A DNA stretch of 41,051 nt. Origin: a virus (lineage: Duplodnaviria > Caudoviricetes). The notes under the pieces are model-generated. The model searched no databases, was not told the origin of the DNA, and saw only the letters and a list, made by a program, of their open reading frames with translations. Numbering within the stretch: the first letter of the stretch is position 1; each line of letters opens with the position of its first letter. Location: positions 1 through 41,051 of IMG/VR virus record IMGVR_UViG_3300032303_002889. The stretch is one strand, 5' to 3'. The position numbers were made by a program, and so were the translations under genes. Of the stretch, positions 7,393 through 41,051 are shown piece by piece.

Positions 7393-7421
7393 TTTACATA
7401 CTAATTGTGTGTGGTTATATT
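7393..7421 (+). promoter_or_regulatory. Promoter TTTACA-N17-TATATT driving the DNA-modification operon
   Basis: Exact motif on the plus strand. Confidence 0.85.
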
Positions 7422-7449: not shown

Positions 7450-7623
7450 ATGCCAGTCAAAGACCCGGTTGATTATGAAATCATCGTTGATGATAGTCCC
7501 GTAGAGAAGAATGATAATATTATAGAGTATGAGGTGTGTTCTGAATGTGATGGAGACGGACAAATAGAGATTGGATATTCCACTTATATTTGTAAGGCCT
7601 GTCAAGGAAAAGGATACATTTAA
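7450..7623 (+). CDS. Small zinc-finger protein (two CxxCxGxG, DnaJ-like repeats)
   Basis: CSECDGDG and CKACQGKG; start moved to ATG 7450 after SD AAGGAG. Confidence 0.75.
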   Translation: MPVKDPVDYEIIVDDSPVEKNDNIIEYEVCSECDGDGQIEIGYSTYICKACQGKGYI

Positions 7624-7625
7624 AC

Positions 7626-8864
7626 ATGAAAGTTGCTATTATATTAGGACGTGGTACTGAGGGTTGTGGAGTAACCCAGTGCGCCATTCAAATGCAAAAA
7701 GCAATTGGCGCAGATATATACTCTGCAAATGATAAAAAATGGCCACGAGCCAAAGGCTTTGATTTTCCTGTAACTGAATTAAACCTTGGAAAGTCTTGGG
7801 AGCGGCTTGCTACTGAAGTTAATAAATATGACCTGTGTGTTGTTTATTCTATTCCGTCTATCACTCATCCAAAAGATTGCCAAGACAATTTTATTCATGC
7901 TCTTAAATCCATTACTATACGTAAAGCATTTATTAATGTTGATCATAAGGCGGCGTCTATTGCGCGCAATGCTAATTTGAAAGAAGTATGTGAATCAGTT
8001 GATATTATTATGACTCACTCTTTACAAAATGCATTTTGTGATACTATTATTAAGCTTGATGTAAAAACGCCTGTTGTAAAAATGGGTTTGGGTTTTGACT
8101 ATGATGCTCATAGAGCGCAATATTGGAAGTCAATTGAAGATCAACAGGCCAATGTTGTACGATGGATTGGAAGAACAGCCACCTGGAAAGGACCGGCTCC
8201 CATGATTGATTTTCATGAAGCATGTCTTATGAACAGTGGATTCATTACCATTCTTGAAGGCCTTGAAGCATCAATTAACTATCCGTCTGTTTTATATAGA
8301 GACAAAGAGCAGACAAATAGAAGAAAGGTTGTTAACTTTTTTAGACCAGAAAAACAGCACGGTGAAACCACAAAATTCACCCAAGATATGTATGGCAAAG
8401 AGATACTTGGTGTAGGAGCTTATTTGTATCCGCCTTATACCAATCAAGAGGGAATGGAAAGAATGTCACATTCTGCTTTTGGATCAGACTTATATTATCT
8501 TGATGCCAAAATGTATGGCAATAACATTGAAAATTGTCATGCTGAAATTGTAGCATGTGGTTCAGTTCCTATCTTTCATAAACATTTCTGCGATAATGTC
8601 ATTCATAAAGTACAAGGAGCTCCTATATCCAAATGTGTCAATAGCGGCACACTAGCACTGGATCACACTAACTTTGATATGGTAGTTGATACTATGATTA
8701 AGCTTAAAAACGATTCAGTCATGAGAAATGAATGGAGAGAGATGGCTTTTGAATTCTGGAAGCAACACTCAGACGGAAAAGAAGTTATTGCTGAAATTAT
8801 TAATTTGGCATTTAATAATGAAACACAACTTCAAGCACAGTCAAAACTTAAGGGGTTTTTTTAA
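7626..8864 (+). CDS. agt: DNA glycosyltransferase, T4 alpha-glucosyltransferase (AGT) family
   Basis: Collinear T4 AGT motifs: RG.EGCGVT, RWIGRT.TWKG, DFHE, EGLE.S, ERMS.S.FG, E..H.E..ACG..P.F.K. Confidence 0.9.
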   Translation: MKVAIILGRGTEGCGVTQCAIQMQKAIGADIYSANDKKWPRAKGFDFPVTELNLGKSWERLATEVNKYDLCVVYSIPSITHPKDCQDNFIHALKSITIRKAFINVDHKAASIARNANLKEVCESVDIIMTHSLQNAFCDTIIKLDVKTPVVKMGLGFDYDAHRAQYWKSIEDQQANVVRWIGRTATWKGPAPMIDFHEACLMNSGFITILEGLEASINYPSVLYRDKEQTNRRKVVNFFRPEKQHGETTKFTQDMYGKEILGVGAYLYPPYTNQEGMERMSHSAFGSDLYYLDAKMYGNNIENCHAEIVACGSVPIFHKHFCDNVIHKVQGAPISKCVNSGTLALDHTNFDMVVDTMIKLKNDSVMRNEWREMAFEFWKQHSDGKEVIAEIINLAFNNETQLQAQSKLKGFF

Positions 8865-9805
8865 TGAACATTTTTATTACTGGTATTTCTGGAATGATTG
8901 GTTTTCATGCTGCAAAGCAATTGACCAAAGAGGGACATACTGTAACTGGCGTAGATAATTTTAATGACTATTATGAAGTGTCGTTAAAGCGCGCTAGAGA
9001 AAAGATTCTTCTTGAAGAATTTAAAATACAGGTGGTTGATGCTGACATACAATCTGCCAATTATGATAAGCTATTACATAATGTGGATGCAGTGTTACAC
9101 CTGGCGGCATATGCCAATCCACGTCATTCACTAGAATATCCTCAGTTGTATATTGATACCAACATCACTGGTACTCAACGTCTTATTGAAGCATGTGAAA
9201 AGGCTAATATTTCAGATGTTATTTATGCGTCATCCTCTTGTGTGATGCATGGCCAAGATCTTCCATGGAATGAACATGATAAACCAGGACATCAGAACAA
9301 TCCTTATGGCTGGTCAAAAAGAGTTAATGAATGTCAGTTTGTTTATAGTAAAATTCCCAAGACAACCGGTCTCAGATTCTTTACAGTATACGGCCCATAT
9401 GGTCGTCCAGACATGGCTCTTTTCTTATTCACCAAAGGAATTATTGATGGCACACCTATTACGCTATTTAACTATGGCAATATGATTCGTGATTTTACTT
9501 ATGTAGATGATATTGTTCAAGGCATAAGTCTGGTAATAAATGAGTCTAAGAGTAAACAAAGTTTCCATGAAATATACAATATTGGATATGGTGACAAAGT
9601 TGACCTAATGGATTTTGTACACCACATAGAAAAGAATGTAGGAAAAAGTGGTGTGTATAATCTTCTTCCGCCTCATCCTGCTGACGTTCCTGCAACCTGG
9701 TCAGATATTTCCAAACTTCAAACTCTTGGATACAATCCCACAACACCTATTAGTCTAGGAGTTGAAAAGTTTGTTGAATGGTATAGAAGTTACTATAATG
9801 TCTAA
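8864..9805 (+). CDS. NAD-dependent epimerase, UDP-glucuronate 4-epimerase-like
   Basis: GISGMIG, DNFNDYY...LK..R, HLAA, YASSS, YGWSK, LRFFTVYGPYGRPDMA, RDFTYVDDIV. Confidence 0.88.
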   Translation: MNIFITGISGMIGFHAAKQLTKEGHTVTGVDNFNDYYEVSLKRAREKILLEEFKIQVVDADIQSANYDKLLHNVDAVLHLAAYANPRHSLEYPQLYIDTNITGTQRLIEACEKANISDVIYASSSCVMHGQDLPWNEHDKPGHQNNPYGWSKRVNECQFVYSKIPKTTGLRFFTVYGPYGRPDMALFLFTKGIIDGTPITLFNYGNMIRDFTYVDDIVQGISLVINESKSKQSFHEIYNIGYGDKVDLMDFVHHIEKNVGKSGVYNLLPPHPADVPATWSDISKLQTLGYNPTTPISLGVEKFVEWYRSYYNV

Positions 9806-10658
9806 AAAGTTATCATTAGGTATAATAGGTCATGGCTTTGTTGGAAAAGCTGTGGAATTTGGTTTTGATACAGAAAATGTTGAGAAGTTTATTGTTGATC
9901 CGCTACATAATACCACAATTGATGATATGTTTAATCATTTCATTCCAGACATTGTGTTTATTGCTGTTCCTACTCCAATGGGAGAAGACGGATCTATAAA
10001 TTCCAGTATTATTGAATCTGTTTTTCATGGCCTTGCCAAACAAAAAAAGAAAACAATTGCAGTAGTTAAATCCACTGTAACGCCGAATGTTATCACTGGT
10101 CTTGAAAAGATTTATGATAGAGTGGTGTATAATCCAGAATTTCTTACTGAAAGAAATGCCAATGAAGACTTTATACACTCAGATTTTCTTATTTTGGGTG
10201 GAAAAATAGTAAGCGATCTGGTTAAAGTAAAGAACATATATGAAGATTACTCTAAATGTGATTCTTTTGAGGTATATTACACTGATCTTGAAGCAGCGTC
10301 CATGGTAAAATACACTATGAATTGCTTTATGGCAGCAAAAGTTCTATTCTTTAATCAAATACATTCAATATACCGTGCTTCGGGCTCTTTAACCCCATGG
10401 GATCAATTTGTTGATATCATAAAAGCAGACAAAAGAATGGGAACCACTCATATGGATGTTCCAGGACCAGACGGTAGATTTGGATATGGAGGAGCTTGTT
10501 TTCCAAAAGATACCGCTGCACTTGTTAGATACGCATCAAATATAAACAATCCTTTTACTGCATTAGAAGAGGTTATTCAGGCCAATCAACGTATACGAAA
10601 TCAATATACAGAATTAAGTGATAGAGAAAAAGAACAAAATGTTAAGTTTGATATTTAA
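9798..10658 (+). CDS. ugd: UDP-glucose/GDP-mannose 6-dehydrogenase family, short form lacking the C-terminal domain
   Basis: GHGFVG, IAVPTP, KSTV.P, NPEFL.E, KY..N.F.A.K, GYGGACFPKD with catalytic Cys; start set at ATG 9798. Confidence 0.88.
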   Translation: MSKKLSLGIIGHGFVGKAVEFGFDTENVEKFIVDPLHNTTIDDMFNHFIPDIVFIAVPTPMGEDGSINSSIIESVFHGLAKQKKKTIAVVKSTVTPNVITGLEKIYDRVVYNPEFLTERNANEDFIHSDFLILGGKIVSDLVKVKNIYEDYSKCDSFEVYYTDLEAASMVKYTMNCFMAAKVLFFNQIHSIYRASGSLTPWDQFVDIIKADKRMGTTHMDVPGPDGRFGYGGACFPKDTAALVRYASNINNPFTALEEVIQANQRIRNQYTELSDREKEQNVKFDI

Positions 10659-10666
10659 GGATATAT

Positions 10667-11860
10667 ATGTCATATACACACGGTAATATTATACCCCTAA
10701 TCGGTGGATTGGCTGAAGCTCAGCGCCAAGCATTTGGCGCAGAACCAACTTGGAATGCGTCCTATTCGGCTTTTCAAAACAATGATCAATGGACTAAAAA
10801 GAATTTTACTAAAACTCCTTTTTATGATTTGGATGTTGATGATAAGTCCAATATAAATCATGTTAATGTTGTAGGATCTGTGTGTCCTTGCGCAGGCCTA
10901 TCTCAATTATCCATAAAAGCTGGCTTTGATAATACAGCTAACGATTGGATGTACAGATCAACAGAAGATGTTCTTAAACATTCTCAACCGGATGTTTTAT
11001 GGGGAGAGAATGCGCCTGCTTTGTCAACTAGACTAGGTGAATCAGTAAGAGAAAAACTATATGCTATTGGTAAAGAGAGCGGATATACCCTATCTTTGCT
11101 TAAAACTGCATCCATGCATCATGGTGTTCCACAAGTAAGAAATAGATCATTCTTTTTCTTTTGGAAAGGAGATCAGGTGCCAGTGCTAGAGTTTGTTAAA
11201 GAAAAGAGTGTTAGTCTTAAGGATCATCTCGCTTCTTTTCCAGCAGTTCAAGATGAGCCACTAAGAAAAGATATTCCAAGCAGTCTTCCTCTTTATAGGT
11301 TTATTTTACAAAAATATGGAAAAACACATGCAGAATTTGTTGAATCATTAACCAAGTATGCAGATATTCTTACCTATTTAAAAGATAATAATTTGATTGA
11401 TGAAGCGCTAAAATTCCTAGGTGAAGAGGATTCCAAGGAAAAGCGTATGCTTATGAGAATAAAGAACAAGATTTCGCAAAACATGAACTTTAGAGGTGGA
11501 TATATGGTATTTACCCCTAATAATAAGCCTACTGCAGCGTTTGTGGGGTCTGTGCCCATGGATTTGGTACATCCAACTGAAGATAGATTTTTAACTCTAA
11601 CCGAAATGAAAAGAATAATGACTCTTCCTGATAGTTATATTTTTGATCCAGGCAAGTCACTTAAGAATCTAAATCACTTGTGTCAAAATGTTCCAACAAA
11701 AACAGCACTTGAGGCTGCCAAGCAAGTCATTAAACACTTGGATGGAAAGTTAACCACCATCAGACCATCAGGAATCTATATACAGAGCTTTAATGATGAT
11801 GCAGAACTAGTTAAAAAGTCCTTTTCAGGATTTGATTTTACTAGGAGGAATGCGGTATGA
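10667..11860 (+). CDS. Divergent DNA cytosine-C5 methyltransferase
   Basis: Motif IV PC (CPCAGLS), VI ENA, VIII GVPQ.R.R, IX R.LT..E..R....P..Y, X QNVP; motif I is IIPLIGG rather than FxGxGG. Confidence 0.85.
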   Translation: MSYTHGNIIPLIGGLAEAQRQAFGAEPTWNASYSAFQNNDQWTKKNFTKTPFYDLDVDDKSNINHVNVVGSVCPCAGLSQLSIKAGFDNTANDWMYRSTEDVLKHSQPDVLWGENAPALSTRLGESVREKLYAIGKESGYTLSLLKTASMHHGVPQVRNRSFFFFWKGDQVPVLEFVKEKSVSLKDHLASFPAVQDEPLRKDIPSSLPLYRFILQKYGKTHAEFVESLTKYADILTYLKDNNLIDEALKFLGEEDSKEKRMLMRIKNKISQNMNFRGGYMVFTPNNKPTAAFVGSVPMDLVHPTEDRFLTLTEMKRIMTLPDSYIFDPGKSLKNLNHLCQNVPTKTALEAAKQVIKHLDGKLTTIRPSGIYIQSFNDDAELVKKSFSGFDFTRRNAV

Positions 11861-12039
11861 TAACTATTACTGTTGCTGAATTAGAAAAGGATTTTGATGA
11901 TATTATGGATGATGTAATTGAGAATGGAACACATTATATCATCACTGATAATGATGGAAAAAAGTCTTCTGTTTTAATGCCTTATGACAAAAAAATATCT
12001 GATTTCTTTAGTGAAGATGATAATGAGGAAGATGAATAA
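11857..12039 (+). CDS. Phd/YefM-like antitoxin-domain protein (orphan)
   Basis: ITVAEL..DFD.IMD.V...G..YIIT.......VLMP pattern, acidic tail. Confidence 0.7.
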   Translation: MITITVAELEKDFDDIMDDVIENGTHYIITDNDGKKSSVLMPYDKKISDFFSEDDNEEDE

Positions 12040-12053
12040 ATAGGATATATAAG

Positions 12054-12287
12054 ATGATAAGTCACCAGCAAATATTAGATATGACCAAAGAAGATGTAAT
12101 AAAAATTACCACTTTTGAAGAAGAAGAATCATCTATTGAAGTAAATATGAAAGAAGAGCTTCTAAAAACCTATGAGGATCATGCAAAGAAAATTGGTGTT
12201 GAAACTGAAAAACTTCTCTCTGCAATAGTTATTCTTTATTGCAGAGAGCTTCTTGAAAAAGATGAAGAAATTCCAATTACTAATTAA
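12054..12287 (+). CDS. Small acidic protein, possible ribbon-helix-helix
   Basis: SIEVNM.EEL...Y...AKK.G.....LL..IV fits a beta-helix-G-helix pattern. Confidence 0.6.
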   Translation: MISHQQILDMTKEDVIKITTFEEEESSIEVNMKEELLKTYEDHAKKIGVETEKLLSAIVILYCRELLEKDEEIPITN

Positions 12288-12660: not shown

Positions 12661-12903
12661 CTATAAATCTAGTACTTCATCAAGCTTGGGCTTTGTGAAC
12701 CCAATCATATGAACCTCGCCATCAATATTAATCTGAGGTACTGAGGCTACTCCACCGCTTAATTCCATCATTTTGTCATAAGCGGCTTGATCTTTTTCAA
12801 CATCAAGCTTAGTGTAAGGAATACCCTTGGATTCTAAATATTTTGTTAAATACTTGCATGGCTGGCACCATTCTGTGCTATAGATAGTTATTACTTTGTT
12901 CAT
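12661..12903 (-). CDS. Glutaredoxin (NrdH-like)
   Basis: WCQPC active site, SVPQI cis-Pro motif, IGF; ATGA overlap with the nrdJ stop fixes the start at 12903. Confidence 0.93.
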   Translation of the reverse strand: MNKVITIYSTEWCQPCKYLTKYLESKGIPYTKLDVEKDQAAYDKMMELSGGVASVPQINIDGEVHMIGFTKPKLDEVLDL

Positions 12904-14804
12904 ATTACCACACATCCCTCTGCACCTGAACATGCAGCTTCACCTTGAAGATCTGTATTGTCAGATTCTTCAATAATCTCACTTAAATCTACTGAATGTA
13001 AATCACTCACTAGTTCTTCATATCGCTCTTTAGTGATATCCTCAAAAGGGGCCTGTATATAACTTCCTCCATCGTAAGGCAACACGGATATACCTGAATA
13101 ATAATCTTTATTTTCCCACATCCATGCTCCAACTGTGCTCCATTCATCAGGCTTAATTGAAATGGTACAACTTACGTTATGAGTATTTTTTCCCTTATTA
13201 TGACCAGGTTTAATCCAATTCTTATGTAAAGATTTAACTCGCTCAAGAGTAGAAATAGGGCTTTCTGTCCGTAATGTTGCTCCAACTGGAGCTTTTTGAG
13301 GCACACCGATTACTGCAGTGGTGGTTGGATTAAAATGTTCATTCTCAACTAGCTCAGGATGAAAAATTGATAGATACTGATAGATGGCTTCATTCTTACC
13401 TACTCGAATTCTACGTAGGTAATAATCATTATGCCAGGCATGAACACCACTTGAGGTTCCAAGTACGCAACTTGAAGTTCCACTAGGTTTGGTTGTGGTA
13501 ACACGCGCAGCAGGGTTAATCCCTATGATAGCAGCAACTCGCTTATTTTCTTCAACAGCGGCTTTAGCTCCAGCTTTAAGATCCAGATTCATAACCACAC
13601 CGGATGCAATGCCAGTCATGGATACTCCAAGTAGCGCGTCTTTTTCTTGATTCTTTCTCCAAATAGGACGAAGATAATGAAACTCAGTGTATCCAGCTTG
13701 CAGTGTTCCAATAAATGCAGCAGCGCGTGTCCTTTCTTCAAAGTCCGCCTGGTCAAGAATATCTCCAGCATTGATTTCACAAAGATTGCAAAATTGATTT
13801 GAACGCAACGAAATTTCGGCGCAAGGATTGACACCTAATTCAGAATCATTGGTTAGAAATATTCCAGGTTCACCTGAACCACTATCCTCAATCTTTTTCC
13901 AGATCTTAAAGAAATCAGCCTCTTGTAGTTTATCACGTACAAGCACAACTGAGTTATTGGCTCTTCCACGTTGTGGATTGCTTTCCCACCAGTTGCCAGT
14001 TTTACAGGTAAGCATGGCTTCGTCTTCAAAACTAAACAGCGAAATAAGTGCTGCTCGGCGAATACCACCTGCAAGAACAGCGTCAGCAAGATGACAAATA
14101 ATATCATGTACTTCAATAGGACGAAGCTTGGTTCCACGACCACGAGTTTGAACTGCAGCTTCTAGTATATTGGTTACCTGAGTAATACATTCACGAAGAG
14201 GACCAGGTCCTGGAGCTTTTCCACCAGAGGTCATAAGCTGTTCGCCTTTTGCTCTTACATCTCTATAATCAAACTCCAGTGGCTTCTTTCCTTTAAACCA
14301 AGCTTCAATCAAAACCTTAACAGCATCAGCCCAACCTTCAATAGAATCTCCTACCAGATAGCGACGAGCTCTCTCATTTCCTTCAAGACGCTCAGGTCCT
14401 AATAGCGGAGGAAGTTGATCAACATGATCTTTTTGAACAGAAACACCAACTCCAGTGCCCGATAATAGCAAAAAAATAGTTTCACTAAATGCATCAATAT
14501 GATTGACATGGAGAAAGGAACAATTGTATAGACGTGAAGGATTAACTTCTATAGGTTTACCCGCAAATTGTAATGATCTCATTGACGGCAATACTTTCTT
14601 TGTAAGCACAAAGTCAGCATATACTTTTTCAATATCATTGTGTAAATTTGGATATTTTCTTTGATGCATTTCCTTGTTTCTAGTAACAAGTTCTGTCCAG
14701 GTTTCTCGCCTCTTCTTCTCTGGAACATATTTAGCATATTTCATATGTGTTGTAATTTCGGATAAAATGTCTGAAGATAACTTTCCGCTATCAATTGACG
14801 TCAT
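12900..14804 (-). CDS. nrdJ: Class II (adenosylcobalamin-dependent) ribonucleotide reductase
   Basis: YNC, GG.A.GP.PL, AGGIRRAALISL, NPCAEI.L..QFCNL.E, KPSGT and a C-terminal Cys pair; no beta subunit gene adjacent. Confidence 0.92.
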   Translation of the reverse strand: MTSIDSGKLSSDILSEITTHMKYAKYVPEKKRRETWTELVTRNKEMHQRKYPNLHNDIEKVYADFVLTKKVLPSMRSLQFAGKPIEVNPSRLYNCSFLHVNHIDAFSETIFLLLSGTGVGVSVQKDHVDQLPPLLGPERLEGNERARRYLVGDSIEGWADAVKVLIEAWFKGKKPLEFDYRDVRAKGEQLMTSGGKAPGPGPLRECITQVTNILEAAVQTRGRGTKLRPIEVHDIICHLADAVLAGGIRRAALISLFSFEDEAMLTCKTGNWWESNPQRGRANNSVVLVRDKLQEADFFKIWKKIEDSGSGEPGIFLTNDSELGVNPCAEISLRSNQFCNLCEINAGDILDQADFEERTRAAAFIGTLQAGYTEFHYLRPIWRKNQEKDALLGVSMTGIASGVVMNLDLKAGAKAAVEENKRVAAIIGINPAARVTTTKPSGTSSCVLGTSSGVHAWHNDYYLRRIRVGKNEAIYQYLSIFHPELVENEHFNPTTTAVIGVPQKAPVGATLRTESPISTLERVKSLHKNWIKPGHNKGKNTHNVSCTISIKPDEWSTVGAWMWENKDYYSGISVLPYDGGSYIQAPFEDITKERYEELVSDLHSVDLSEIIEESDNTDLQGEAACSGAEGCVVI

Positions 14805-32221: not shown

Positions 32222-34522
32222 TTACATAGACCCCATCAATAAGTTTTTTCCACCAAGAATATCCATTTTAGGCGTAATAGTTTTCTTATTGTTGCTATAT
32301 TTAAGCTCTTTAAGTATGGATTGCAATAATTCCACCATGGTATCATTAGAGAACACGCTACCAGATGCGCTTTCTTGTTTAGATTCTGATTTTGTATTTT
32401 TTACAATTTCAATTGTATTAGGATCTTGAAAGAAAAGAATTTTATCTCTTGGATCTTTATAATGTATTGTTCCATTACTTTCAATATAAGCATCTTCAAC
32501 TTTCTTTCCTTCTTTAGGTTTTCCAGCAGGTTCTCCAAAAACAGCATTATACATTCCAGAATCATATAAAACATCAGCTAAGTTATCTCCAAGTACATTT
32601 CCAAGAACGCCTAATGCAAGACCAGCAGCTAGTGTTAGTGGGGTTGGCACTCCCAGTGAAGGAGCTGTACCAGCTAGGGCTCCAAGAGCCCCGAATCCAA
32701 TACCGCCAATATTTCTAAGCAAATATTTAAAATTTGATCTTTCTGCAAACTTATTTTTTTCATAATCAGTAACCTTATCACTGGCGTTTATTGTGTTTAT
32801 ATCTGATGCTGTAAATGCAGCATCAACTCCTGCGCCAATAATTGGTAAACCTTTAACTAAATATCTGCCTGCTGTACCTACTGCTCCTTTTAATCCTTTT
32901 AAAAATGAAGGATTTTCAGCAATAGGAGGTGTGGAACTATCAGGACCCGGTAATGTACCTGGGCGAGTAGACATTGGAGAAGGAACAAATCCTTTTACGT
33001 GGGGTTTATACCATCGTTGAGCTTTTAGATTGTATTTTAAACCTCTTGTATCTTCAGGTTTAGGAGCGTATCTTCCTTGATTTCTAAATTCGCCTGTTTT
33101 TTGATAAAATTTAGGACCATTAGGCGCTCTAACACTTGGGTTTGATGGTTTGGGGGCAGGAGGGGCAGGAGGAACCAAACTTGGCGCTGTAGGCATACCA
33201 GGTTTAGGTGTAAATTTATTTTTTAGACCATCCATAAAAGTCTTAAGTGCAGCTGCGATGCCACCTCCTGCAAATAGTGAAATAATCGAATCTAGTCCTC
33301 CACCGCCTCCACCGCCTGAAGGACCACCAGCATCTCCAGACCCATTTTTATATAAACCACCTTTGGCGCCAAGATCTGTTATTCCAAAAGCATTTGTTAA
33401 AAACAAAGTTTGTTCACCAGGAAGAGCAGTAGGTAGTAAAATATCATTCTTGGTGGGTTTTAATTTTCCTTTAGTAGTTTTTTTAGATGAGTTTTTATTA
33501 GGACTTCCATCTCTATTAGCACCGGGTCCAAACGAGGCTGCTTCACCAGATCTGCCTAATGATATAGATTTTTCATAACTGCCTGTATTTTGATATATAC
33601 TGTTGTCTTTAAAAACACGTGCATCACTTTCATCCATCACTGGATTTCTGTCATATGCATCTTGTTCATCATACGCGCCTAATTGAGCACGTAAAGCATT
33701 ATACTCTGAGGATCCAGGTTTTGCTCTTCTAAATCTTTCTTGTGCTCTTGTTTTATTTTCTTGAAATTTAAGTTTTTGTGCAAAAGAATTCCTATTCTCT
33801 GTAAGCATTTCTTCTTTATCGGCTGAACGATTTTTAAATCCGCCAAAAAGCTTTCCAACATACCCAAACTTATCTTCAATAGCAGATACTACATCTTGAT
33901 TGGCTTTTTGATAACCTATGTCTTTATCTATTGCCTCTAATACTTTTCTATTAGTCAATCTAACTTTTCTAGTTTCTATTAATTCTCTATCCAATTCCTT
34001 CATCTGCTTCATATATATGTTTTTTGCAAAACTTACGTTTCCAAGCAGAATCATTTGAAATTTTTGCATTCCTTTTAAATCATTATCAAATCTATTTTTT
34101 TGATGAAGAGAATATGCGGCGTCTGCTGCAATTCTATTTTTTCTTTGATCATCAAAAAATTTTGTTTGAGCTTCAAGAGATCCAATTAAAGAATGAATTG
34201 AGTCTATTTCAGAAGAAAGTCTACGAGTTAATCTAAAGTTTTCTGCAGAAATAGCCGCTCTTTCTTGTACTTCTTTTGTTCCAAAGCTAATAGCGTCTTT
34301 ATACGCCATTCCAGCTTTTCCTCTAGCGCCCGCTTGTCCAAACAGCCCGGTTAAAGATTGAGTACCACCAGAGCTTCCAACAGTTCCAGTATTATTGCCA
34401 CCAGCTCCACTCATAGTGGATATTGTGTGGTTTAAATCCTGTATGACATCAATAAGTTCTTGTTGAGTAGCAGTAAGAAGTCCTGGTCCATTTGGAGGAG
34501 ACAGTCTAGACGGATCACTCAT
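32222..34522 (-). CDS. Tape-measure/baseplate hub-like protein
   Basis: 766 aa: helical N-terminal half, Gly/Pro linkers, Gly-zipper hydrophobic segments; downstream of the chaperone-like gene. Confidence 0.6.
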   Translation of the reverse strand: MSDPSRLSPPNGPGLLTATQQELIDVIQDLNHTISTMSGAGGNNTGTVGSSGGTQSLTGLFGQAGARGKAGMAYKDAISFGTKEVQERAAISAENFRLTRRLSSEIDSIHSLIGSLEAQTKFFDDQRKNRIAADAAYSLHQKNRFDNDLKGMQKFQMILLGNVSFAKNIYMKQMKELDRELIETRKVRLTNRKVLEAIDKDIGYQKANQDVVSAIEDKFGYVGKLFGGFKNRSADKEEMLTENRNSFAQKLKFQENKTRAQERFRRAKPGSSEYNALRAQLGAYDEQDAYDRNPVMDESDARVFKDNSIYQNTGSYEKSISLGRSGEAASFGPGANRDGSPNKNSSKKTTKGKLKPTKNDILLPTALPGEQTLFLTNAFGITDLGAKGGLYKNGSGDAGGPSGGGGGGGLDSIISLFAGGGIAAALKTFMDGLKNKFTPKPGMPTAPSLVPPAPPAPKPSNPSVRAPNGPKFYQKTGEFRNQGRYAPKPEDTRGLKYNLKAQRWYKPHVKGFVPSPMSTRPGTLPGPDSSTPPIAENPSFLKGLKGAVGTAGRYLVKGLPIIGAGVDAAFTASDINTINASDKVTDYEKNKFAERSNFKYLLRNIGGIGFGALGALAGTAPSLGVPTPLTLAAGLALGVLGNVLGDNLADVLYDSGMYNAVFGEPAGKPKEGKKVEDAYIESNGTIHYKDPRDKILFFQDPNTIEIVKNTKSESKQESASGSVFSNDTMVELLQSILKELKYSNNKKTITPKMDILGGKNLLMGSM

Positions 34523-34598
34523 AGATTTTTAGATCTCCTAACAAATAATATCTCCTTTAATTAGTTATTAAAGAAGATTCACAAAACATTATAATCAC

Positions 34599-34802
34599 TT
34601 AACCACGCTGATTTCTTCTTTTCTTGGCTTCTTCATTTTGTGCATTAATAAGATCTACATATTCTTTATGTAAAAATTTAAATGTTCCCCAATCTAAATT
34701 AAGAAGATCTATTACAGAGTTATGAGTATTAAGTGTTAGTGACGATATCATACTCATCAGATTCGAATGAGCCAATGGCTTGAAGTATATCCACGAGTCG
34801 AA
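34599..34802 (-). CDS. Alternate-frame ORF (67 aa), probable frameshift extension of the upstream chaperone
   Basis: The +1 frame is open from TTC at 34802: FDSWIYFKPLAHSNLMSMISS...NEEAKKRRNQRG*; it fills the gap before the TMP-like gene. Confidence 0.6.
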   Translation of the reverse strand, partial: FDSWIYFKPLAHSNLMSMISSLTLNTHNSVIDLLNLDWGTFKFLHKEYVDLINAQNEEAKKRRNQRG

Positions 34803-35802
34803 AAGAGTACCCCCTGGTTACAGTCATTCTAGTAATAGGATTGTACATTTTTATTTCTTCACTATTTATACCAAATTTCAAACCAGCGTAATAATCTTCT
34901 ACTTTTTTTGAAAGAGTATAATCTACTCGTGGATCTTTTGATACATTAAGTTTTTCTTCAAAAGGAAGCTCTGAAAGATCTTTTCCATCAAATTCTAGAA
35001 AGTTAAGACAGCGAACAACATCTACGGCAACCACTGAGCGATTACTTTCAAATAAGGAATACTCTTTCAGATCCATTTCAGAAACATATGGCACATTAGC
35101 CAGATCTATTTCTTCTCCACTATAAGCTCGTCTTTCCAACTCATTTTTTATTTCTAAAGATCTTCTAATGGTAGCAAATTTTTTTGTGTCTTTTTCAAAA
35201 TATACTTTAAGAAATTTTCTTAGAAATATAACATCCCCGTATTTTGGATAGGTAAAAGTGGCAGAAAGACCGGTTTTCTTTGATGATAACTTAAGAATAG
35301 AATTAAACCTATCATCTAGGTCATGTGTTTCAATAGTGGTTAGATTTATTGTGGTTTTAGGAACCCAATTTCCTCTCATAAAGTCATCTCTCATTGTCAA
35401 ATAGCGCTCTTCTCCAACTTCATTTTTTAAGAATTCCCAATCTTCTTCCAGCGGTTCAAAGTCTATGTTTTCAAGAATTGGAGAAAAGTAAATCATGTAA
35501 AGACGCACAATAAGTTCGGTAACTTCTTTTTCATGCCAATTTCTTACTGAAACATTTTTTTCAAAAATCATATCATCTAACAAATTACACATGGTTTCAG
35601 GAAGATCATCTTGAGATGTAAGAGATATGCTTACTAAATCTGTAGTTCTAAAATTTCGTATATGAAATATTTTAGGAGCTCCAACTTTTCCTTTGGTTGA
35701 TAGCTCAATAGCCACATATCCTAATGGAACTTCACTCATGGTCTTTACTTCATGCTGTACTTCATTTAGCGCAGCTAACTGATCATCTGTCAATACTTTC
35801 AT
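34729..35802 (-). CDS. Baseplate/tail assembly chaperone (T4 gp26-like)
   Basis: I.L.T.GK......IR.F...D, F.YP...D pattern; immediately upstream of the TMP-like gene. Confidence 0.55.
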   Translation of the reverse strand: MKVLTDDQLAALNEVQHEVKTMSEVPLGYVAIELSTKGKVGAPKIFHIRNFRTTDLVSISLTSQDDLPETMCNLLDDMIFEKNVSVRNWHEKEVTELIVRLYMIYFSPILENIDFEPLEEDWEFLKNEVGEERYLTMRDDFMRGNWVPKTTINLTTIETHDLDDRFNSILKLSSKKTGLSATFTYPKYGDVIFLRKFLKVYFEKDTKKFATIRRSLEIKNELERRAYSGEEIDLANVPYVSEMDLKEYSLFESNRSVVAVDVVRCLNFLEFDGKDLSELPFEEKLNVSKDPRVDYTLSKKVEDYYAGLKFGINSEEIKMYNPITRMTVTRGYSFRLVDILQAIGSFESDEYDIVTNT

Positions 35803-35853
35803 TTTGTATCCTCTTGAGTAGATTAGTTGTTTTAGTACAAAGCTACAAAAAGA

Positions 35854-37080
35854 TTAGAATTCAGATTCTTGATCTAGTGCAAACTGCTTGGCCAGGTCTT
35901 GTCTAAGTATCTTAGATCTTTGGGACAATAGAACTCTACCACCATCAGGATCTTTAAACATAGGACCGCCGCCAAACTCATCAGGAAAATTATGAGTCAT
36001 CATAAACTCAACAATTCCTTTTGTAGATTTGTCTTGTAGGTCAGACAGATCAATCTTCATAATAGGAAGAAGTCGCGTCTTAATTCTATTAAGGAATGTT
36101 TGTACGTTTTCACTCCAAGCAGCGTCTGAGAATAGCACCATTGATAAGATAAAATCTCTAAAAGCCACTTTATTATCAAACTTATGTGCATATAGCCCAT
36201 TCTCAAACCAGCGTTTAAATACATCTTCATCTTCTGTATTTGCATAAGATGCGTCTTCTGTGCCCAGTGTATCACCAAGCTCGTCACCTGTTTCAGCATT
36301 AGCTTTATTTAGCGATACATCTTTGGGTACGTTCTTTTTAGGTAGATTTTGACGAACCATAGATTCTAGATATCTCATAACATAATGGCCAAGCTTGTAC
36401 CACATGTGTTTTTCAGCATTAGACAGATCAGCATCATTTTTAATTTCTGGAGTACTGATATTGCCTATTTTACTAAAATCATCTGATACTGACGGATCCC
36501 AAGCTCTTACAGGATTTCCTCTATTTTCAGGACTATTGTCTGTAATTTTTTCAGCTGCTGCTGAAGCAAAAGAACCTACATCTCCAAGATTAGGACTGGT
36601 CTTAAGAGCGTTCTTATATCGATGCCAAACTGAAGTAATTTGTCTTTTGGTATAGTGAAGTATTAGAGTGTCTGCATACTGTTTGCCAGGGCCGTTAGAG
36701 TCAAATTCATTTAACATCATTAGAAACTTTTCTTTTCCTAATTCATTCCTAAGCTCTTGAGCTAGAGTAGGATCTTCACCACTTTGAAGAAGTTCAATTA
36801 GCGAATCCACTTCATCAGAGTACTCTTGTTCAAATGCTTTATCAAAGTACTCTTTTGCTTTTTTAATTGATGCAGGATTAGAGAAAATTTGATCAAAGCT
36901 TTTATTATGAAAAGCAGCAGCTTTTTCTTCTCTGTCAGCAGCAGCTTTACGTTTGGATCTGGCCTCTAAAGAATCAGGATCAAGTTCACTTGGACCTTCA
37001 GGAATTTCTATTCCCTCATCTTCAATATCATCCAGGCCTTCAAGAAGCGCCTTTCGGTACATTTCTTCAATTTTACTCAT
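35854..37080 (-). CDS. Hypothetical protein with sigma-factor-like segments
   Basis: 408 aa; WDPS and VSLN......GDELGDTL resemble sigma70 regions 2.3 and 3.2; function tentative. Confidence 0.5.
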   Translation of the reverse strand: MSKIEEMYRKALLEGLDDIEDEGIEIPEGPSELDPDSLEARSKRKAAADREEKAAAFHNKSFDQIFSNPASIKKAKEYFDKAFEQEYSDEVDSLIELLQSGEDPTLAQELRNELGKEKFLMMLNEFDSNGPGKQYADTLILHYTKRQITSVWHRYKNALKTSPNLGDVGSFASAAAEKITDNSPENRGNPVRAWDPSVSDDFSKIGNISTPEIKNDADLSNAEKHMWYKLGHYVMRYLESMVRQNLPKKNVPKDVSLNKANAETGDELGDTLGTEDASYANTEDEDVFKRWFENGLYAHKFDNKVAFRDFILSMVLFSDAAWSENVQTFLNRIKTRLLPIMKIDLSDLQDKSTKGIVEFMMTHNFPDEFGGGPMFKDPDGGRVLLSQRSKILRQDLAKQFALDQESEF

Positions 37081-37095
37081 GAGTAATTAGTATAA

Positions 37096-38493
37096 CTAAT
37101 CATCCAATGATTCATCATTATCTTCAATAGGAAAGCATCTAAAAATGCTGCCATCAAAAGCATACTTCATTATCTTTCCTACTCGACCTTGCGATTGCTT
37201 GAGTATTTGAATTTCTAACACATCTTCAATTTCATCTGCTTCGGGTATATGAGTAAGATATCTCTCTGCATAATATTTTGCTCTAAAAGCTGAGAGCACA
37301 ACTCGTGAACGTTCAGCTAGTGCATGACTGTTCTTAACATGATTTAATTGCGGCCGCAGCAGCTCTAGATCCTCTATAGATTGAATTCTAGCACTGTCTG
37401 CTTGACGTCCAAACTGTGCGACTCCTAAGAAACATATATTCTCATCTTTACACATGGCATTTAAGCGATTGATTCCCATTTCAATAGTGGTTGCTAGCGA
37501 TCCATGACCATTCTCTTGAAAGTCTTGAACCATTGTAATCAAATCGCAAACCACAATAAGATAATCATTACCGGTGCGTTGCTTATATTCACGTATAAGC
37601 GATTGAATATGCGCAAGAGACAGATTAGGATCTTCAACAAAAAAGAAATTCTTTGATCTGTCCAGCTCTTCTTTTTCTTCTTTGAATTTCTTCAAGATAG
37701 GAATTAGATCATCACCTGAGCCATAAAGAGCTTCTACCGGAATCTCGGTTCTCATAGCAAGTAGCCTATCAAAAGTGCTTATGCCATCCATTTCTAGACT
37801 TATGTAAATAGACGGTATGTTAAGATTTATAAATCCATTTACAAGATTTAACGCGTATGCAGACTTTCCTGTGCCTGTAGAACCTGCAATCAAAATAAAT
37901 TGACCTGGAGAAGCTTTACGTGGAAGATATGCATCCAGATGAGCATCTGCAAATGAATAGGTTTTTCCATTCTGTCTATTAAGCAGCTCTTGATAATACT
38001 CATCTGTCCAGGTTTCAGCGCTTTTAAGAACGCTCTTATTGAATGAATTGGAGATAACATCATTCATGGATGATAGCGAATTGGATACAAAAGACGCATC
38101 CAACTCATCATGAGAGTTTACTTCATCTAGCAAATCAACAGCAATCTTTCGCAAGTTTGATTTTTGAACGCCTTTCTGAAGTGTGTTTAATATTTCATTA
38201 AGAACTGGATTTTCATTATCCAGATCTTTAATCATGCTAACTGTTTGAATATCTACGTTATAATTAAGTTCATTTGCTTTTTGAAATAATGAGCTCTCAG
38301 ACAGAGTTAAATCATTCTTGTGATGATATTCAATTGCTTCAAATATAGATCGGGCAGTGGCATGAAAAAAGATATCAGAATAAATTCTACTATCATTTAA
38401 CCAGGATTTGTTTTGAATAAGTCCATTAAGAAGACGATATTCAGACATTACCAGGTATTCAGAATTTGCTCGACTAACCGGTTTGTCTTTCAA
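37096..38493 (-). CDS. dnaB: DnaB-like replicative helicase
   Basis: IAGSTGTGKS, ISLEM, VVCD.I, VAQF.R, ILKQ..G motifs. Confidence 0.92.
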   Translation of the reverse strand: MKDKPVSRANSEYLVMSEYRLLNGLIQNKSWLNDSRIYSDIFFHATARSIFEAIEYHHKNDLTLSESSLFQKANELNYNVDIQTVSMIKDLDNENPVLNEILNTLQKGVQKSNLRKIAVDLLDEVNSHDELDASFVSNSLSSMNDVISNSFNKSVLKSAETWTDEYYQELLNRQNGKTYSFADAHLDAYLPRKASPGQFILIAGSTGTGKSAYALNLVNGFINLNIPSIYISLEMDGISTFDRLLAMRTEIPVEALYGSGDDLIPILKKFKEEKEELDRSKNFFFVEDPNLSLAHIQSLIREYKQRTGNDYLIVVCDLITMVQDFQENGHGSLATTIEMGINRLNAMCKDENICFLGVAQFGRQADSARIQSIEDLELLRPQLNHVKNSHALAERSRVVLSAFRAKYYAERYLTHIPEADEIEDVLEIQILKQSQGRVGKIMKYAFDGSIFRCFPIEDNDESLDD

Positions 38494-39236
38494 TCAAATA
38501 CCCCTTGAATGTTCTTAATATTGATTCCAGACATATAGTTGTCTTCAAAATTGAATTGAGTCTTCTTTAATATAACCCGTCGCTCAATGAAATCTTGAAG
38601 AGAGTAACCAAAGCCTTCACGATCTATTTCTGATATAGGCTTATTGCTGATCAAAATAAGACCTTTCTTATATGTATCAATTCTATCACGTATAAATTGA
38701 TCCAAAAATGGTATCTGAAAACCAGACTTAAAAAGAGTAATTTTATTTTTATCAAAGACTTCATCAATAATTAGCAGATCACAATCATAATACTTTCTTA
38801 CTTTATCTTCACGTTCTTCATCATCCAGCGTGGTTAACGCTTTTATAAGGTTCTGCATTAAGATATATTGAACAGTCTTGCCTTGTGAAAGAAGCTGCGA
38901 CCCGGCCCATTTTGCCAGTGTGGTTTTTTGAGTTCCATTGGCGCCAAAGAAATATAGAACTTCTGATGAATATTTACCAAAATCAGAAACATATTTTTCA
39001 AGCTTGGAGAGCTCGTCACGAGACTTGGTTCCTACATATTGATTTAGTGTATAATCCAGATCTGATTGAGATAATCCAGAAGATGATAATCTAATGGAAA
39101 TGTCACGATCTTTACGCCACTTAATGTGACATTCACACTCTATATATTTTTCATATCCGTCTAAGCCAATAGTGGAGATATAACCAGATAGACGTGCTTT
39201 GTTATGACACTTGCGACATGAGACAAATTTAGCCAT
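38490..39236 (-). CDS. dnaC: DnaC/DnaI-like helicase loader
   Basis: N-terminal CRKC...CEC, variant Walker A GANGTQKT, DLLIIDE, LISN; overlaps dnaB. Confidence 0.8.
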   Translation of the reverse strand: MAKFVSCRKCHNKARLSGYISTIGLDGYEKYIECECHIKWRKDRDISIRLSSSGLSQSDLDYTLNQYVGTKSRDELSKLEKYVSDFGKYSSEVLYFFGANGTQKTTLAKWAGSQLLSQGKTVQYILMQNLIKALTTLDDEEREDKVRKYYDCDLLIIDEVFDKNKITLFKSGFQIPFLDQFIRDRIDTYKKGLILISNKPISEIDREGFGYSLQDFIERRVILKKTQFNFEDNYMSGINIKNIQGVFD

Positions 39237-39251
39237 GATTAGAATATAACC

Positions 39252-39794
39252 CTAACGTGGTCTTTTTGCTAGCTCTTCTAGATTTAGATCTGGCCACTCT
39301 GACCATGAGGTAATACGTGCATCCTGTCTAACATCTGATCCACGATTATATGGAGCGTCAAATACAACTCTTAGGCCTTGAAAATTATTAATAAACTTTG
39401 GATTATCATCAATCAGAACCCAATCACTGGAAAAAATGCTTTTGTCATTGGTAAATATTACTTTTTGTGTATCAAAGAAAGGCAATTCTCTTTGAATCCA
39501 GCGAATCTTTTCTTTCATGATCCAGGGCTTGGATAGTGCAGATGAAACAATAAATACATCATGGTCTTTTATCATTTTAGACATAGCCTTTGCCATGCCA
39601 TCAATGGGTTTTAGCCATTCAAATGGACTAAAACGCTTTTCAAAACGCTTTAGCGCACCAGGCCAGGTCTTTTCAAGATCATACTCTATTACATCTTCTC
39701 TGGTAATGATTTTTCCATCAGCGCGCTCAAAAGTTTCTACAAAATAGCCAATCAAATCGGCAATCGTACCGTCCATATCAACAGCAATTCTCAT
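39252..39794 (-). CDS. 5'(3')-deoxyribonucleotidase (NT5C, HAD)
   Basis: IAVDMDGT.AD, K..W....PF, LIDDNP, F.APYN. Confidence 0.9.
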   Translation of the reverse strand: MRIAVDMDGTIADLIGYFVETFERADGKIITREDVIEYDLEKTWPGALKRFEKRFSPFEWLKPIDGMAKAMSKMIKDHDVFIVSSALSKPWIMKEKIRWIQRELPFFDTQKVIFTNDKSIFSSDWVLIDDNPKFINNFQGLRVVFDAPYNRGSDVRQDARITSWSEWPDLNLEELAKRPR

Positions 39795-39825
39795 TTTAAT
39801 ATCCTCTTCTTAAGAATATAACCGG

Positions 39826-40389
39826 TTAATCATAATCATACTTGGTTGCCAAAGCAAATAACAGATCACTTAGTCTATTAAGATAGCGTGAGCTATTATT
39901 TAGATCATATCTCATTTTATTGTGATTCATAAACTTTACTATGGTTCTCTCCGCGCGCCTACAACATGTGCGTGCCTGATGAATAAATCCGCCAGGAAGA
40001 ATAAACTTTGAGGGTATGTCCACAGTCTTAAGTATATCTCTTTGATAATCTTCCAGATCTTCTTCAATATGAAGAGGAGTTATTGGTTTTAGAGCCAGGT
40101 ATGTCTCTGAATGAAAAACTCCTGAAAAATCAATATCAGGATCTGTTGCTACTAGCGCCATTATATCATGCAATCTGTTTTGAATAGTGGTTAAACGTTC
40201 AGAGTTCACTGCCACAAAGCGATTGTCACGTGTCTTAAGAACTGTTCCTATCCAGGAGGATAGCTCATCAATGTCACCTAGCACATCAAAAAATTCATCA
40301 GATTTGGGAATTCGCCTACCGGACCAGTTGGATGAAACTCCCAAATCGCCCGATTTTGTGGTTATTTTATCAAAATCTTCTACACTCAT
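39826..40389 (-). CDS. pduO: PduO-type ATP:cob(I)alamin adenosyltransferase
   Basis: ITTK.GD.G, G.IDEL.S.IG, FILPGG, H.ART.CRRAER, YLNRLSD.LF. Confidence 0.93.
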   Translation of the reverse strand: MSVEDFDKITTKSGDLGVSSNWSGRRIPKSDEFFDVLGDIDELSSWIGTVLKTRDNRFVAVNSERLTTIQNRLHDIMALVATDPDIDFSGVFHSETYLALKPITPLHIEEDLEDYQRDILKTVDIPSKFILPGGFIHQARTCCRRAERTIVKFMNHNKMRYDLNNSSRYLNRLSDLLFALATKYDYD

Positions 40390-40428
40390 TCATATACTCC
40401 AGGTTACTAGGAATATAACCACATTTTA

Positions 40429-41051
40429 TTATTTTTTAGTAGAATCATTTAGTGAGTTTTGAATATCTTCTCTGGCCTGTAATAGTTTCTTGCTACGTTC
40501 AACGTTATAATTGCTTTTTTCTCTTATCACATTCATTAGATCATTGCTTATCTCAGAGAATACGTGTTTATTCTGCCACAACACATCACTGATGATGTTA
40601 GATGGAATCTCATCTGAAACAAACCACATATCATAATGCTCAACACTCTTGTGCAATACACTATCACTTATGGTTTCCAAGAGATTAGACCACTCTATCT
40701 GAGATCTATGATTAAATCCATTAAGTTCTGCGCTCTTAAGATAGATCTTCATGATCTCTATCTTTAAGCTCTCTCCTGCAGACGTAAACAGGTGAAAACA
40801 TCTTTTATAATGAGCTGGAGATGCTTTCACGATCACGTCTCGCACAATATCTCTATGATTGGACACCAAATTATCAGCACCACGTGTTACAAGAAGACGT
40901 ACATCCTCTTTGTATTTTACCTCAGCAATGAGATCATCCTGTATATTATCCACAAGTGAAGCTATCTTTTGATTAAGATAGTTATTTGAGATCTGTCGAG
41001 GTGATGGACGATGTAATACTTTTTCCACAAATACGTTAACGGCTTTCTCAT
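40429..41051 (-). CDS. Hypothetical protein, 5' end beyond the window
   Basis: The frame of the 199-aa ORF stays open to the window edge. Confidence 0.7.
   Translation of the reverse strand, partial: EKAVNVFVEKVLHRPSPRQISNNYLNQKIASLVDNIQDDLIAEVKYKEDVRLLVTRGADNLVSNHRDIVRDVIVKASPAHYKRCFHLFTSAGESLKIEIMKIYLKSAELNGFNHRSQIEWSNLLETISDSVLHKSVEHYDMWFVSDEIPSNIISDVLWQNKHVFSEISNDLMNVIREKSNYNVERSKKLLQAREDIQNSLNDSTKK

Follow-up and report, generated by a model that had tools for sequence, protein, structure and literature searches.

A block of four phage genes predicted to place a uronic acid on hydroxymethylcytosine in DNA

The DNA analysed here (the window) is the whole of IMG/VR virus record IMGVR_UViG_3300032303_002889, a linear viral contig of 41,051 nt that is estimated to be 27% complete, the remaining 73% of the genome being unseen. 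It carries a block of four genes on the plus strand. A preliminary description, made from the letters alone, placed the block at 7626-11860 and proposed that it makes a uronic acid donor and attaches the sugar to cytosine in DNA. All four genes are intact open reading frames (ORFs) over exactly this span. Their positions also bear out the tight coupling that had been proposed: the first and second overlap by 1 nt (TAATG), the second and third overlap by 8 nt, and the third and fourth are separated by 8 nt. The four genes are as follows.

7626..8864, plus strand: AGT-family GT-B DNA glycosyltransferase, 412 aa, matching PF11440 and T4 AGT
8864..9805, plus strand: short-chain dehydrogenase/reductase (SDR) of UDP-glucuronate 4-epimerase type, 313 aa
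9798..10658, plus strand: short UDP-glucose 6-dehydrogenase (UGDH), 286 aa from the ATG, matching PF03721 and PF00984
10667..11860, plus strand: C5-cytosine methyltransferase (MT), 397 aa, matching PF00145 (E 8e-22)

By sequence and by predicted structure, the first protein is a member of the T4 AGT family with a GT-B fold, as had been suggested. It matches PF11440 with E 2e-34 and T4 AGT over its full length with E 1e-43, and T4 AGT entries are its only sequence matches in the PDB. The AlphaFold model (pLDDT 90) matches T4 AGT with a TM score of 0.83 and E 3e-31, while the next-best structural family reaches E 4e-10, and OtsA and GT4 enzymes are far behind T4 AGT. The EGCG loop is retained, as are Arg183, Lys188 and Glu302, which correspond to T4 Arg204, Lys209 and Glu306. 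These three are kept in 121, 123 and 121 of 123 full-length representatives, and by analogy with VldE and OtsA they would bind UDP. Two other positions have changed, T4 His114 being Val105 and T4 Ser117 being Lys108. In the available excerpts on OtsA and VldE, a His touches O6 of the donor sugar, and to judge from its position T4 His114 is probably the counterpart. The acceptor is predicted from the gene context to be 5-hydroxymethylcytosine (hmC) in duplex DNA. The C-terminus (8841-8864) has the pattern Q-x-x-L-x-x-F-F, which we take to be a PIP-box-like motif; the AGT of T4-like relatives ends there in GLEEFF. A 2025 preprint reports that T4 AGT did not bind gp45.

The second protein has 5u4q (E 6e-74) and 6zl6 (E 8e-48) as its best solved relatives, with GalE, dTDP-glucose dehydratases and UDP-glucuronate (UDP-GlcA) decarboxylases well below them (E 1e-21 for the decarboxylases). 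We take 5u4q to be Klebsiella Uge, and 6zl6, from its matching residue numbers, is presumably the UDP-glucuronic acid 4-epimerase of B. cereus (EC 5.1.3.6). Thr126/Ser127/Ser128, Tyr149, Lys153 and Arg185 of 6zl6 align with Ser124/Ser125/Cys126, Tyr148, Lys152 and Arg181 of the SDR, which shares with the B. cereus enzyme the Tyr-x3-Lys pair, the carboxylate-binding Arg and the Ser/Thr loop, and differs from it in having Cys for Ser128 and a phage-specific loop, A[YF]ANPRH. This loop carries the Arg and is present in 83/83 relatives. In the available part of PMC12338863, the Thr/Ser residues and Arg185 are the carboxylate grips of the UDP-GlcA 4-epimerase, epimerases of the uronate type are reported to be unable to use UDP-glucose or UDP-galactose, and disturbing the Ser128 site is reported to shift the enzyme towards decarboxylation. 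The residues thus place the SDR in the UDP-glucuronate 4-epimerase type, as first proposed, and it is predicted to interconvert UDP-GlcA and UDP-galacturonate (UDP-GalA).

The third protein had been described as a UDP-glucose dehydrogenase, which is right as far as the catalytic residues go, but it is truncated. The NAD-binding and central domains are matched, while the C-terminal domain PF03720 gives no match in the 286-aa protein, and the structure model (pLDDT 96) contains only the first two UGDH domains and finishes in a pair of helices at residue 286. The residues were mapped by motif spacing against the 18 invariants listed in the available part of PMC4794789. Cys260, Lys204, Asn208, Asp264 and Thr118 of UGDH correspond to Cys234, Lys171, Asn175, Asp238 and Thr93 in the window, and 16 of the 18 invariants are kept. 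By sequence and model the protein is UGDH-like at best, a truncated relative. A search with the alignment of the short UGDH gave 72 distinct proteins, all of 340 aa or less, and the short UGDH is therefore a family and not a broken gene.

The fourth protein contains intact C5-methyltransferase motifs IV (PC), VI (ENxP, here ENAP), VIII (QxRxR), IX and X, with a variant motif I (PLIGG). The identification as a C5-MT therefore stands. It has diverged further than the neighbouring proteins, with 35% identity to the enzyme at locus L029 against 66% for the AGT and 63% for the epimerase. Its C-terminus (11830-11860) lacks the LxxF tail carried by relatives, and no target site could be inferred from the base composition of the window. 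Five distinct viral records were found to have this MT, and each carries a homologue of gp42, the dCMP hydroxymethylase of T4, in one case about 100 kb from the MT; Pseudoalteromonas phage XG4 carries gp42 as well. The cyanophage S-TIM5 has this MT and an AGT, and a search for gp42 gave no match there. It was considered as a precedent without gp42, but was rejected as such: 2.4 kb from the MT lies a gene annotated as ThyA (L081:8775-9611) whose product probably modifies dCMP, because its dCMP-specificity position is occupied by Asp and the phage encodes a separate ThyX as well. The MT belongs to a clade of phage enzymes found alongside ThyA homologues that modify dCMP, and is thus a companion of replicative cytosine modification whichever glycosyltransferase is present.

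The neighbourhood of the AGT was surveyed using the best 80 of 144 viral matches and the best 80 of 175 metagenome matches, giving 87 distinct loci after de-duplication. Of these, 70 had 1.5 kb of sequence downstream, 44 had 4 kb downstream, and 31 had 4.5 kb upstream; the loci are kin by descent, and the counts are not independent events. The preliminary description had asked whether AGT homologues co-occur with the epimerase and ugd, and in aquatic phages they do: the epimerase follows the AGT in 69/70 loci, and within 4 kb downstream are found the epimerase in 43/44, the MT in 42/44 and UGDH in 40/44. AGT and epimerase are adjacent in 77/80 viral loci, mostly with overlapping stop and start codons. 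Upstream are a gp42-like gene (28/31), a dCMP deaminase (28/31) and a dCTPase-like gene (20/31). The genes most often run gp42 - deaminase - AGT - epimerase - UGDH - MT - UvsX - gp41. The three loci without gp42 are L090, from a sister of the window phage, L162 and L166. The gp42 homologue matches the T4 enzyme with E 9e-70, and 63/64 proteins retain Asp145, Cys148, Asp171 and Asp179. The available part of PMC13326640 gives residue rules that separate ThyA-type makers of hydroxymethyl-dCMP, hydroxy-dCMP and hydroxymethyl-dUMP, and by these rules the product is therefore hydroxymethyl-dCMP and not either of the others.

A second survey started from the short UGDH, using the best 80 of at least 591 confirmed matches, of which 50 distinct loci had enough flanking sequence. 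The nearby glycosyltransferase is an AGT in 7, a GT-A enzyme of the TAGT family in 25 (called by BLAST to six Pfam-confirmed members) and only a GT4 in 2, and no AGT, TAGT or GT4 is nearby in 16. The short UGDH thus mostly, but not always, accompanies DNA-type glycosyltransferases, which have two unrelated folds. Nine of the short-UGDH loci have an epimerase of the A[YF]ANPRH subclade, and in 8 of these it adjoins an AGT.

Some of the loci seen in these surveys have unusual arrangements. L288 (8799-10004 and neighbours) reads gp42 - deaminase - divergent AGT - short UGDH - MT, with no epimerase, and is a candidate glucuronyl variant. In L293, L300 and L313 (for example L293:2084-3625) the short UGDH has a B12-binding radical SAM protein as its neighbour, together with a clamp loader; no glycosyltransferase was recognised in these loci. 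L309:3022-5114 has a ThyA-like gene, an asparagine-synthase-like amidotransferase, a dCMP deaminase and the short UGDH in a row, possibly for another base modification. A conserved gene of about 130 aa with no Pfam match (L058:4525-4917 and kin) lies directly 5' of the AGT in 36/80 loci. By eye it resembles a uracil-DNA-glycosylase fold.

On the basis of these observations, we hypothesise that hmC is first formed at the nucleotide level and that the AGT then adds alpha-galacturonate to it, giving a broad rather than a site-specific modification; we hold this to be somewhat better than an even chance. A gp42-type dCMP hydroxymethylase, presumed to be encoded in the missing 73% of the genome, would supply hmC at replication, as is indicated by the presence of gp42 beside the block in 28/31 relatives. 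The short UGDH, or a host enzyme, would oxidise UDP-glucose to UDP-GlcA, which the epimerase would convert to UDP-GalA. The AGT would then flip the hmC and transfer the uronate with retention. Finally, the MT would most likely methylate those cytosines that escape replacement, and would not set the sites of the sugar. The linkage of epimerase and UGDH is conserved, and a uronic acid donor is the likeliest product, as was originally suggested; since the epimerase is the tightest partner of the AGT, the epimerised product would appear to be needed.

Several points weigh against this proposal. Neither gp42 nor TET was found in the 27%-complete contig or in the sister locus L090, and the acceptor is presumed rather than established for this phage. 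The role given to the MT is a guess, because full replacement of dC would leave it little substrate. The short UGDH may be slow or inactive, because the C-terminal domain with Lys320 is absent, Glu201 is replaced by Ser, and Tyr10 (98% conserved) is replaced by Phe14; its tail carries invariant Arg267, Tyr270, Arg276 and Glu277, which could substitute for Lys320. Phage C48C1 has the epimerase and the short UGDH but gives no match to AGT or gp42, and together with the 16/50 short-UGDH loci lacking a recognisable glycosyltransferase this means that the pair can serve other glycans. Finally, the change of His114 to Val is weakened as a signature of uronate transfer and is not diagnostic, because His is found at this variable position in only 53/123 representatives and is kept in three divergent AGTs that are linked to UGDH.

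The base composition was also considered. Depletion of CCC/GGG as a mark of cytosine replacement (window 0.51 of expected, 21 relatives 0.56-0.71, T4 0.74) was rejected, as the values of 30 unrelated loci range over 0.42-1.02, and 0.60 and 0.62 are seen in two complete genomes that give no gp42 match. Palindromes of 4 bp containing C are not avoided in the window (1.05; 19 lineage loci 0.60-0.99, 30 other loci 0.46-0.95). This would be in keeping with a genome that is protected, but was not used as evidence, T4 itself having 0.80. Depletion of CpG (0.58) is not a footprint of the MT, because lineage loci without the block show 0.59.

A different outcome would be that the AGT adds a neutral hexose, either glucose as in T4 or galactose, with the epimerase and UGDH serving another glycan or the SDR using neutral UDP-sugars. 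The only characterised member of the AGT family uses UDP-glucose, phage C48C1 and the 16 loci just mentioned fit such a division of labour, and according to the available part of Pyle et al. epimerase-dependent phage glycosyltransferases also produced hexose and HexNAc. It is nevertheless unlikely, though by no means negligible, given the adjacency of AGT and epimerase with its overlapping stop and start codons, the position of the A[YF]ANPRH subclade beside the AGT, and the uronate-type residues of the epimerase, such enzymes being reported not to use UDP-glucose or UDP-galactose.

It could also be that the donor is UDP-GlcA itself, or UDP-xylose (a pentose) formed if the SDR decarboxylates. 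The arrangement in L288, with AGT, UGDH and MT but no epimerase, points this way, as does the Cys in place of Ser128 with the decarboxylation reported for that site. We consider it quite unlikely, as the epimerase is a tighter partner than UGDH (43/44 against 40/44) and solved UDP-GlcA decarboxylases are far more distant from the SDR than 5u4q and 6zl6.

The route originally proposed for the acceptor was that the MT makes 5-methylcytosine (5mC) within a short motif, that a TET enzyme encoded away from the block oxidises this base, and that the AGT adds uronate only there. The window does contain an MT and no gp42, most of the genome is unseen, and clusters of MT, TET, glycosyltransferase and epimerase exist (Pyle et al.; Burke et al., each in the available part). 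Sites defined by the MT are nonetheless improbable in our estimate, since gp42 accompanies both this AGT clade and this MT clade. There is no match to PF12851 (TET) in the window or in sets of 5, 19 and 16 records, these being overlapping sets searched without a positive control. The MT/TET pairs described in the available part of Burke et al. (2021) were chosen as lying within five genes of each other, and no TET/JBP gene lies within five genes of the window MT, whose flanking genes are UvdE, rIIA, Phd-like, glutaredoxin and ribonucleotide reductase. GT-B enzymes, moreover, associate more often with ThyS.

A self-sufficient module of new chemistry, in which the MT-like protein, kept in hmC phages although unmodified cytosine ought to be rare there, works on or makes hmC in DNA and the two-domain UGDH is a minimal enzyme adapted to feed an AGT-family uronosyltransferase, is a very doubtful idea; that galacturonyl-hmC would thereby be written with neither gp42 nor TET is equally so. 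That the block is an imported remnant with no acceptor pathway, of which only the MT is still useful, accords with the lack of gp42 or TET and with the absence of AGT and MT from distant lineage records, but is hardly credible when the four genes are intact, keep their catalytic residues and share 97-99% identity with those of two sister contigs.

The four genes had been described as a unit behind one promoter. The run is in fact longer: the plus-strand island consists of seven ORFs, flanked by minus-strand UvdE/rIIA/rIIB and by glutaredoxin and a class II ribonucleotide reductase. The additional features are as follows.

7393..7421, plus strand: sigma70-like promoter candidate TTTACA-17-TATATT, a consensus match only (10/12), divergent from the UvdE gene
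7450..7623, plus strand: 57-aa ORF with two CxxC motifs, its start codon (ATG, 7450) preceded by a ribosome-binding site
11857..12039, plus strand: Phd/YefM-like small protein, whose start overlaps the MT stop (ATGA)
12054..12287, plus strand: 77-aa ORF, last gene of the run, with no match in a family search

A promoter candidate thus exists, but a single promoter ahead of the block is only plausible, as sites of this kind number 36 in the window and 21.4 +/- 5.0 in shuffled sequences. The 57-aa ORF, which has weak DnaJ/anti-TRAP-like zinc-finger matches under the cut-off, is likely to be the first gene of the transcription unit. No toxin partner for the Phd/YefM-like gene was recognised at 11857-12287.

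The window also encodes DnaB, a DnaC-like loader, a Pol III-type clamp-loader subunit, RecA, ClpP and a cobalamin adenosyltransferase, and its phage is not T4-like. The cobalamin adenosyltransferase (39826-40389) occurs in the same phage as a B12-dependent class II ribonucleotide reductase (12900-14804). Between 59 and 64% of the sampled words of the block are present in four freshwater metagenome runs from four studies. Attempts to extend the genome gave no usable result: searches with three window proteins led to no other viral contig, the ribonucleotide reductase matches belonged to other lineages, and contigs matched to 33000-41051 gave no usable extension.

A tree of 43 rows puts the window AGT in a clade of five (support 100/96), one of which is from L079, where the order is gp42 - HNH-like gene - AGT - epimerase - UGDH. 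The lineage of the window phage was compared using 19 records that share a marker with it at 28-42% identity, 5 of them at least 90% complete. None of the 19 has an AGT or MT, and one has a gp42-like gene. In a 306-kb relative of this lineage that gives no AGT or MT match, a gp42-like match (L277, G011:229481-230104) lies inside an open frame of 442 aa. The block was probably imported into this unrelated large-phage lineage from a pool seen mostly in T4-like aquatic phages, import being the simplest reading of its presence there.

Among the closest known systems is that of T4 itself (gp42, dCMP deaminase, gp56 and AGT; PDB 1xv5, 1y6f), which makes glucosyl-hmC with a glycosyltransferase of the same fold and core residues. 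The relatives have gp42 and dCMP deaminase, and their block is just before uvsX-gp41, the slot that in T4 holds 42 and b-gt. The differences are that the window AGT has only about 29% identity to T4 AGT, with the Val noted above, and that in T4 the 20 kb examined around 42 and a-gt contain neither an epimerase nor a UGDH or C5-MT. In the available part of Pyle et al. (bioRxiv 10.1101/2023.12.21.572611), subclass II glycosyltransferase and epimerase clusters carry out epimerase-dependent transfer of hexuronic acid to hmC, as is predicted here, and HexA-mC (433 amu) was made from the epimerase and glycosyltransferase of contig 57 and the glycosyltransferase of contig 91. Hexuronyl-5mC had thus already been made from phage metagenome pathways, a point that the preliminary description overlooked. 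The enzymes tested there were GT-A, acting in E. coli on hmC made by MT and TET at GpC sites, whereas here there are a retaining GT-B AGT, the phage's own UGDH and probably replicative hmC. According to the available part of PMC5977210, the DNA of Bacillus phage SP-15 natively carries phosphoglucuronate and the phage has a UDP-glucose dehydrogenase, two features in common with the proposal made here, but with a phosphodiester-linked glucuronolactone on dihydroxypentyl-uracil and a full-length UGDH (gene 146, 1311 bp). The arabinosyl-5-hydroxycytosine systems of RB69 and DLP3 (available part of PMC13326640) share a ThyA-like base writer, a phage-made donor other than glucose and a DNA glycosyltransferase; in those systems position 169 of ThyA is Asn and the product is 5-hydroxycytosine, whereas the relatives here keep Asp.

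No AGT-family uronosyltransferase was found in a literature search whose coverage of subscription papers was mostly lacking, and the Pfam accessions tried gave no match in the MetaGPA paper (PMC8670742) and its four supplement files. What is new here is the probable import of the block into a freshwater lineage that is not T4-like, a short UGDH that is widespread and accompanies DNA glycosyltransferases with two different folds, and an MT that keeps company with enzymes modifying dCMP.

Hexuronyl-hmC was known before from GT-A/TET pathways reconstituted in the laboratory, and a natural version is predicted here. The block is small, and could be tested in E. coli or on T4gt DNA. If the prediction is correct, the AGT family would gain a donor other than glucose, and with it a means of attaching a carboxylate handle to 5hmC; UGDH would be able to work without its C-terminal domain; and there would be a clean substrate with which to ask whether the readers of glucosyl-hmC (GmrSD, Brig1) recognise a uronate. 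Much of the cytosine in a widespread group of aquatic phages would then carry an anionic sugar, beyond the glucose and arabinose already known.

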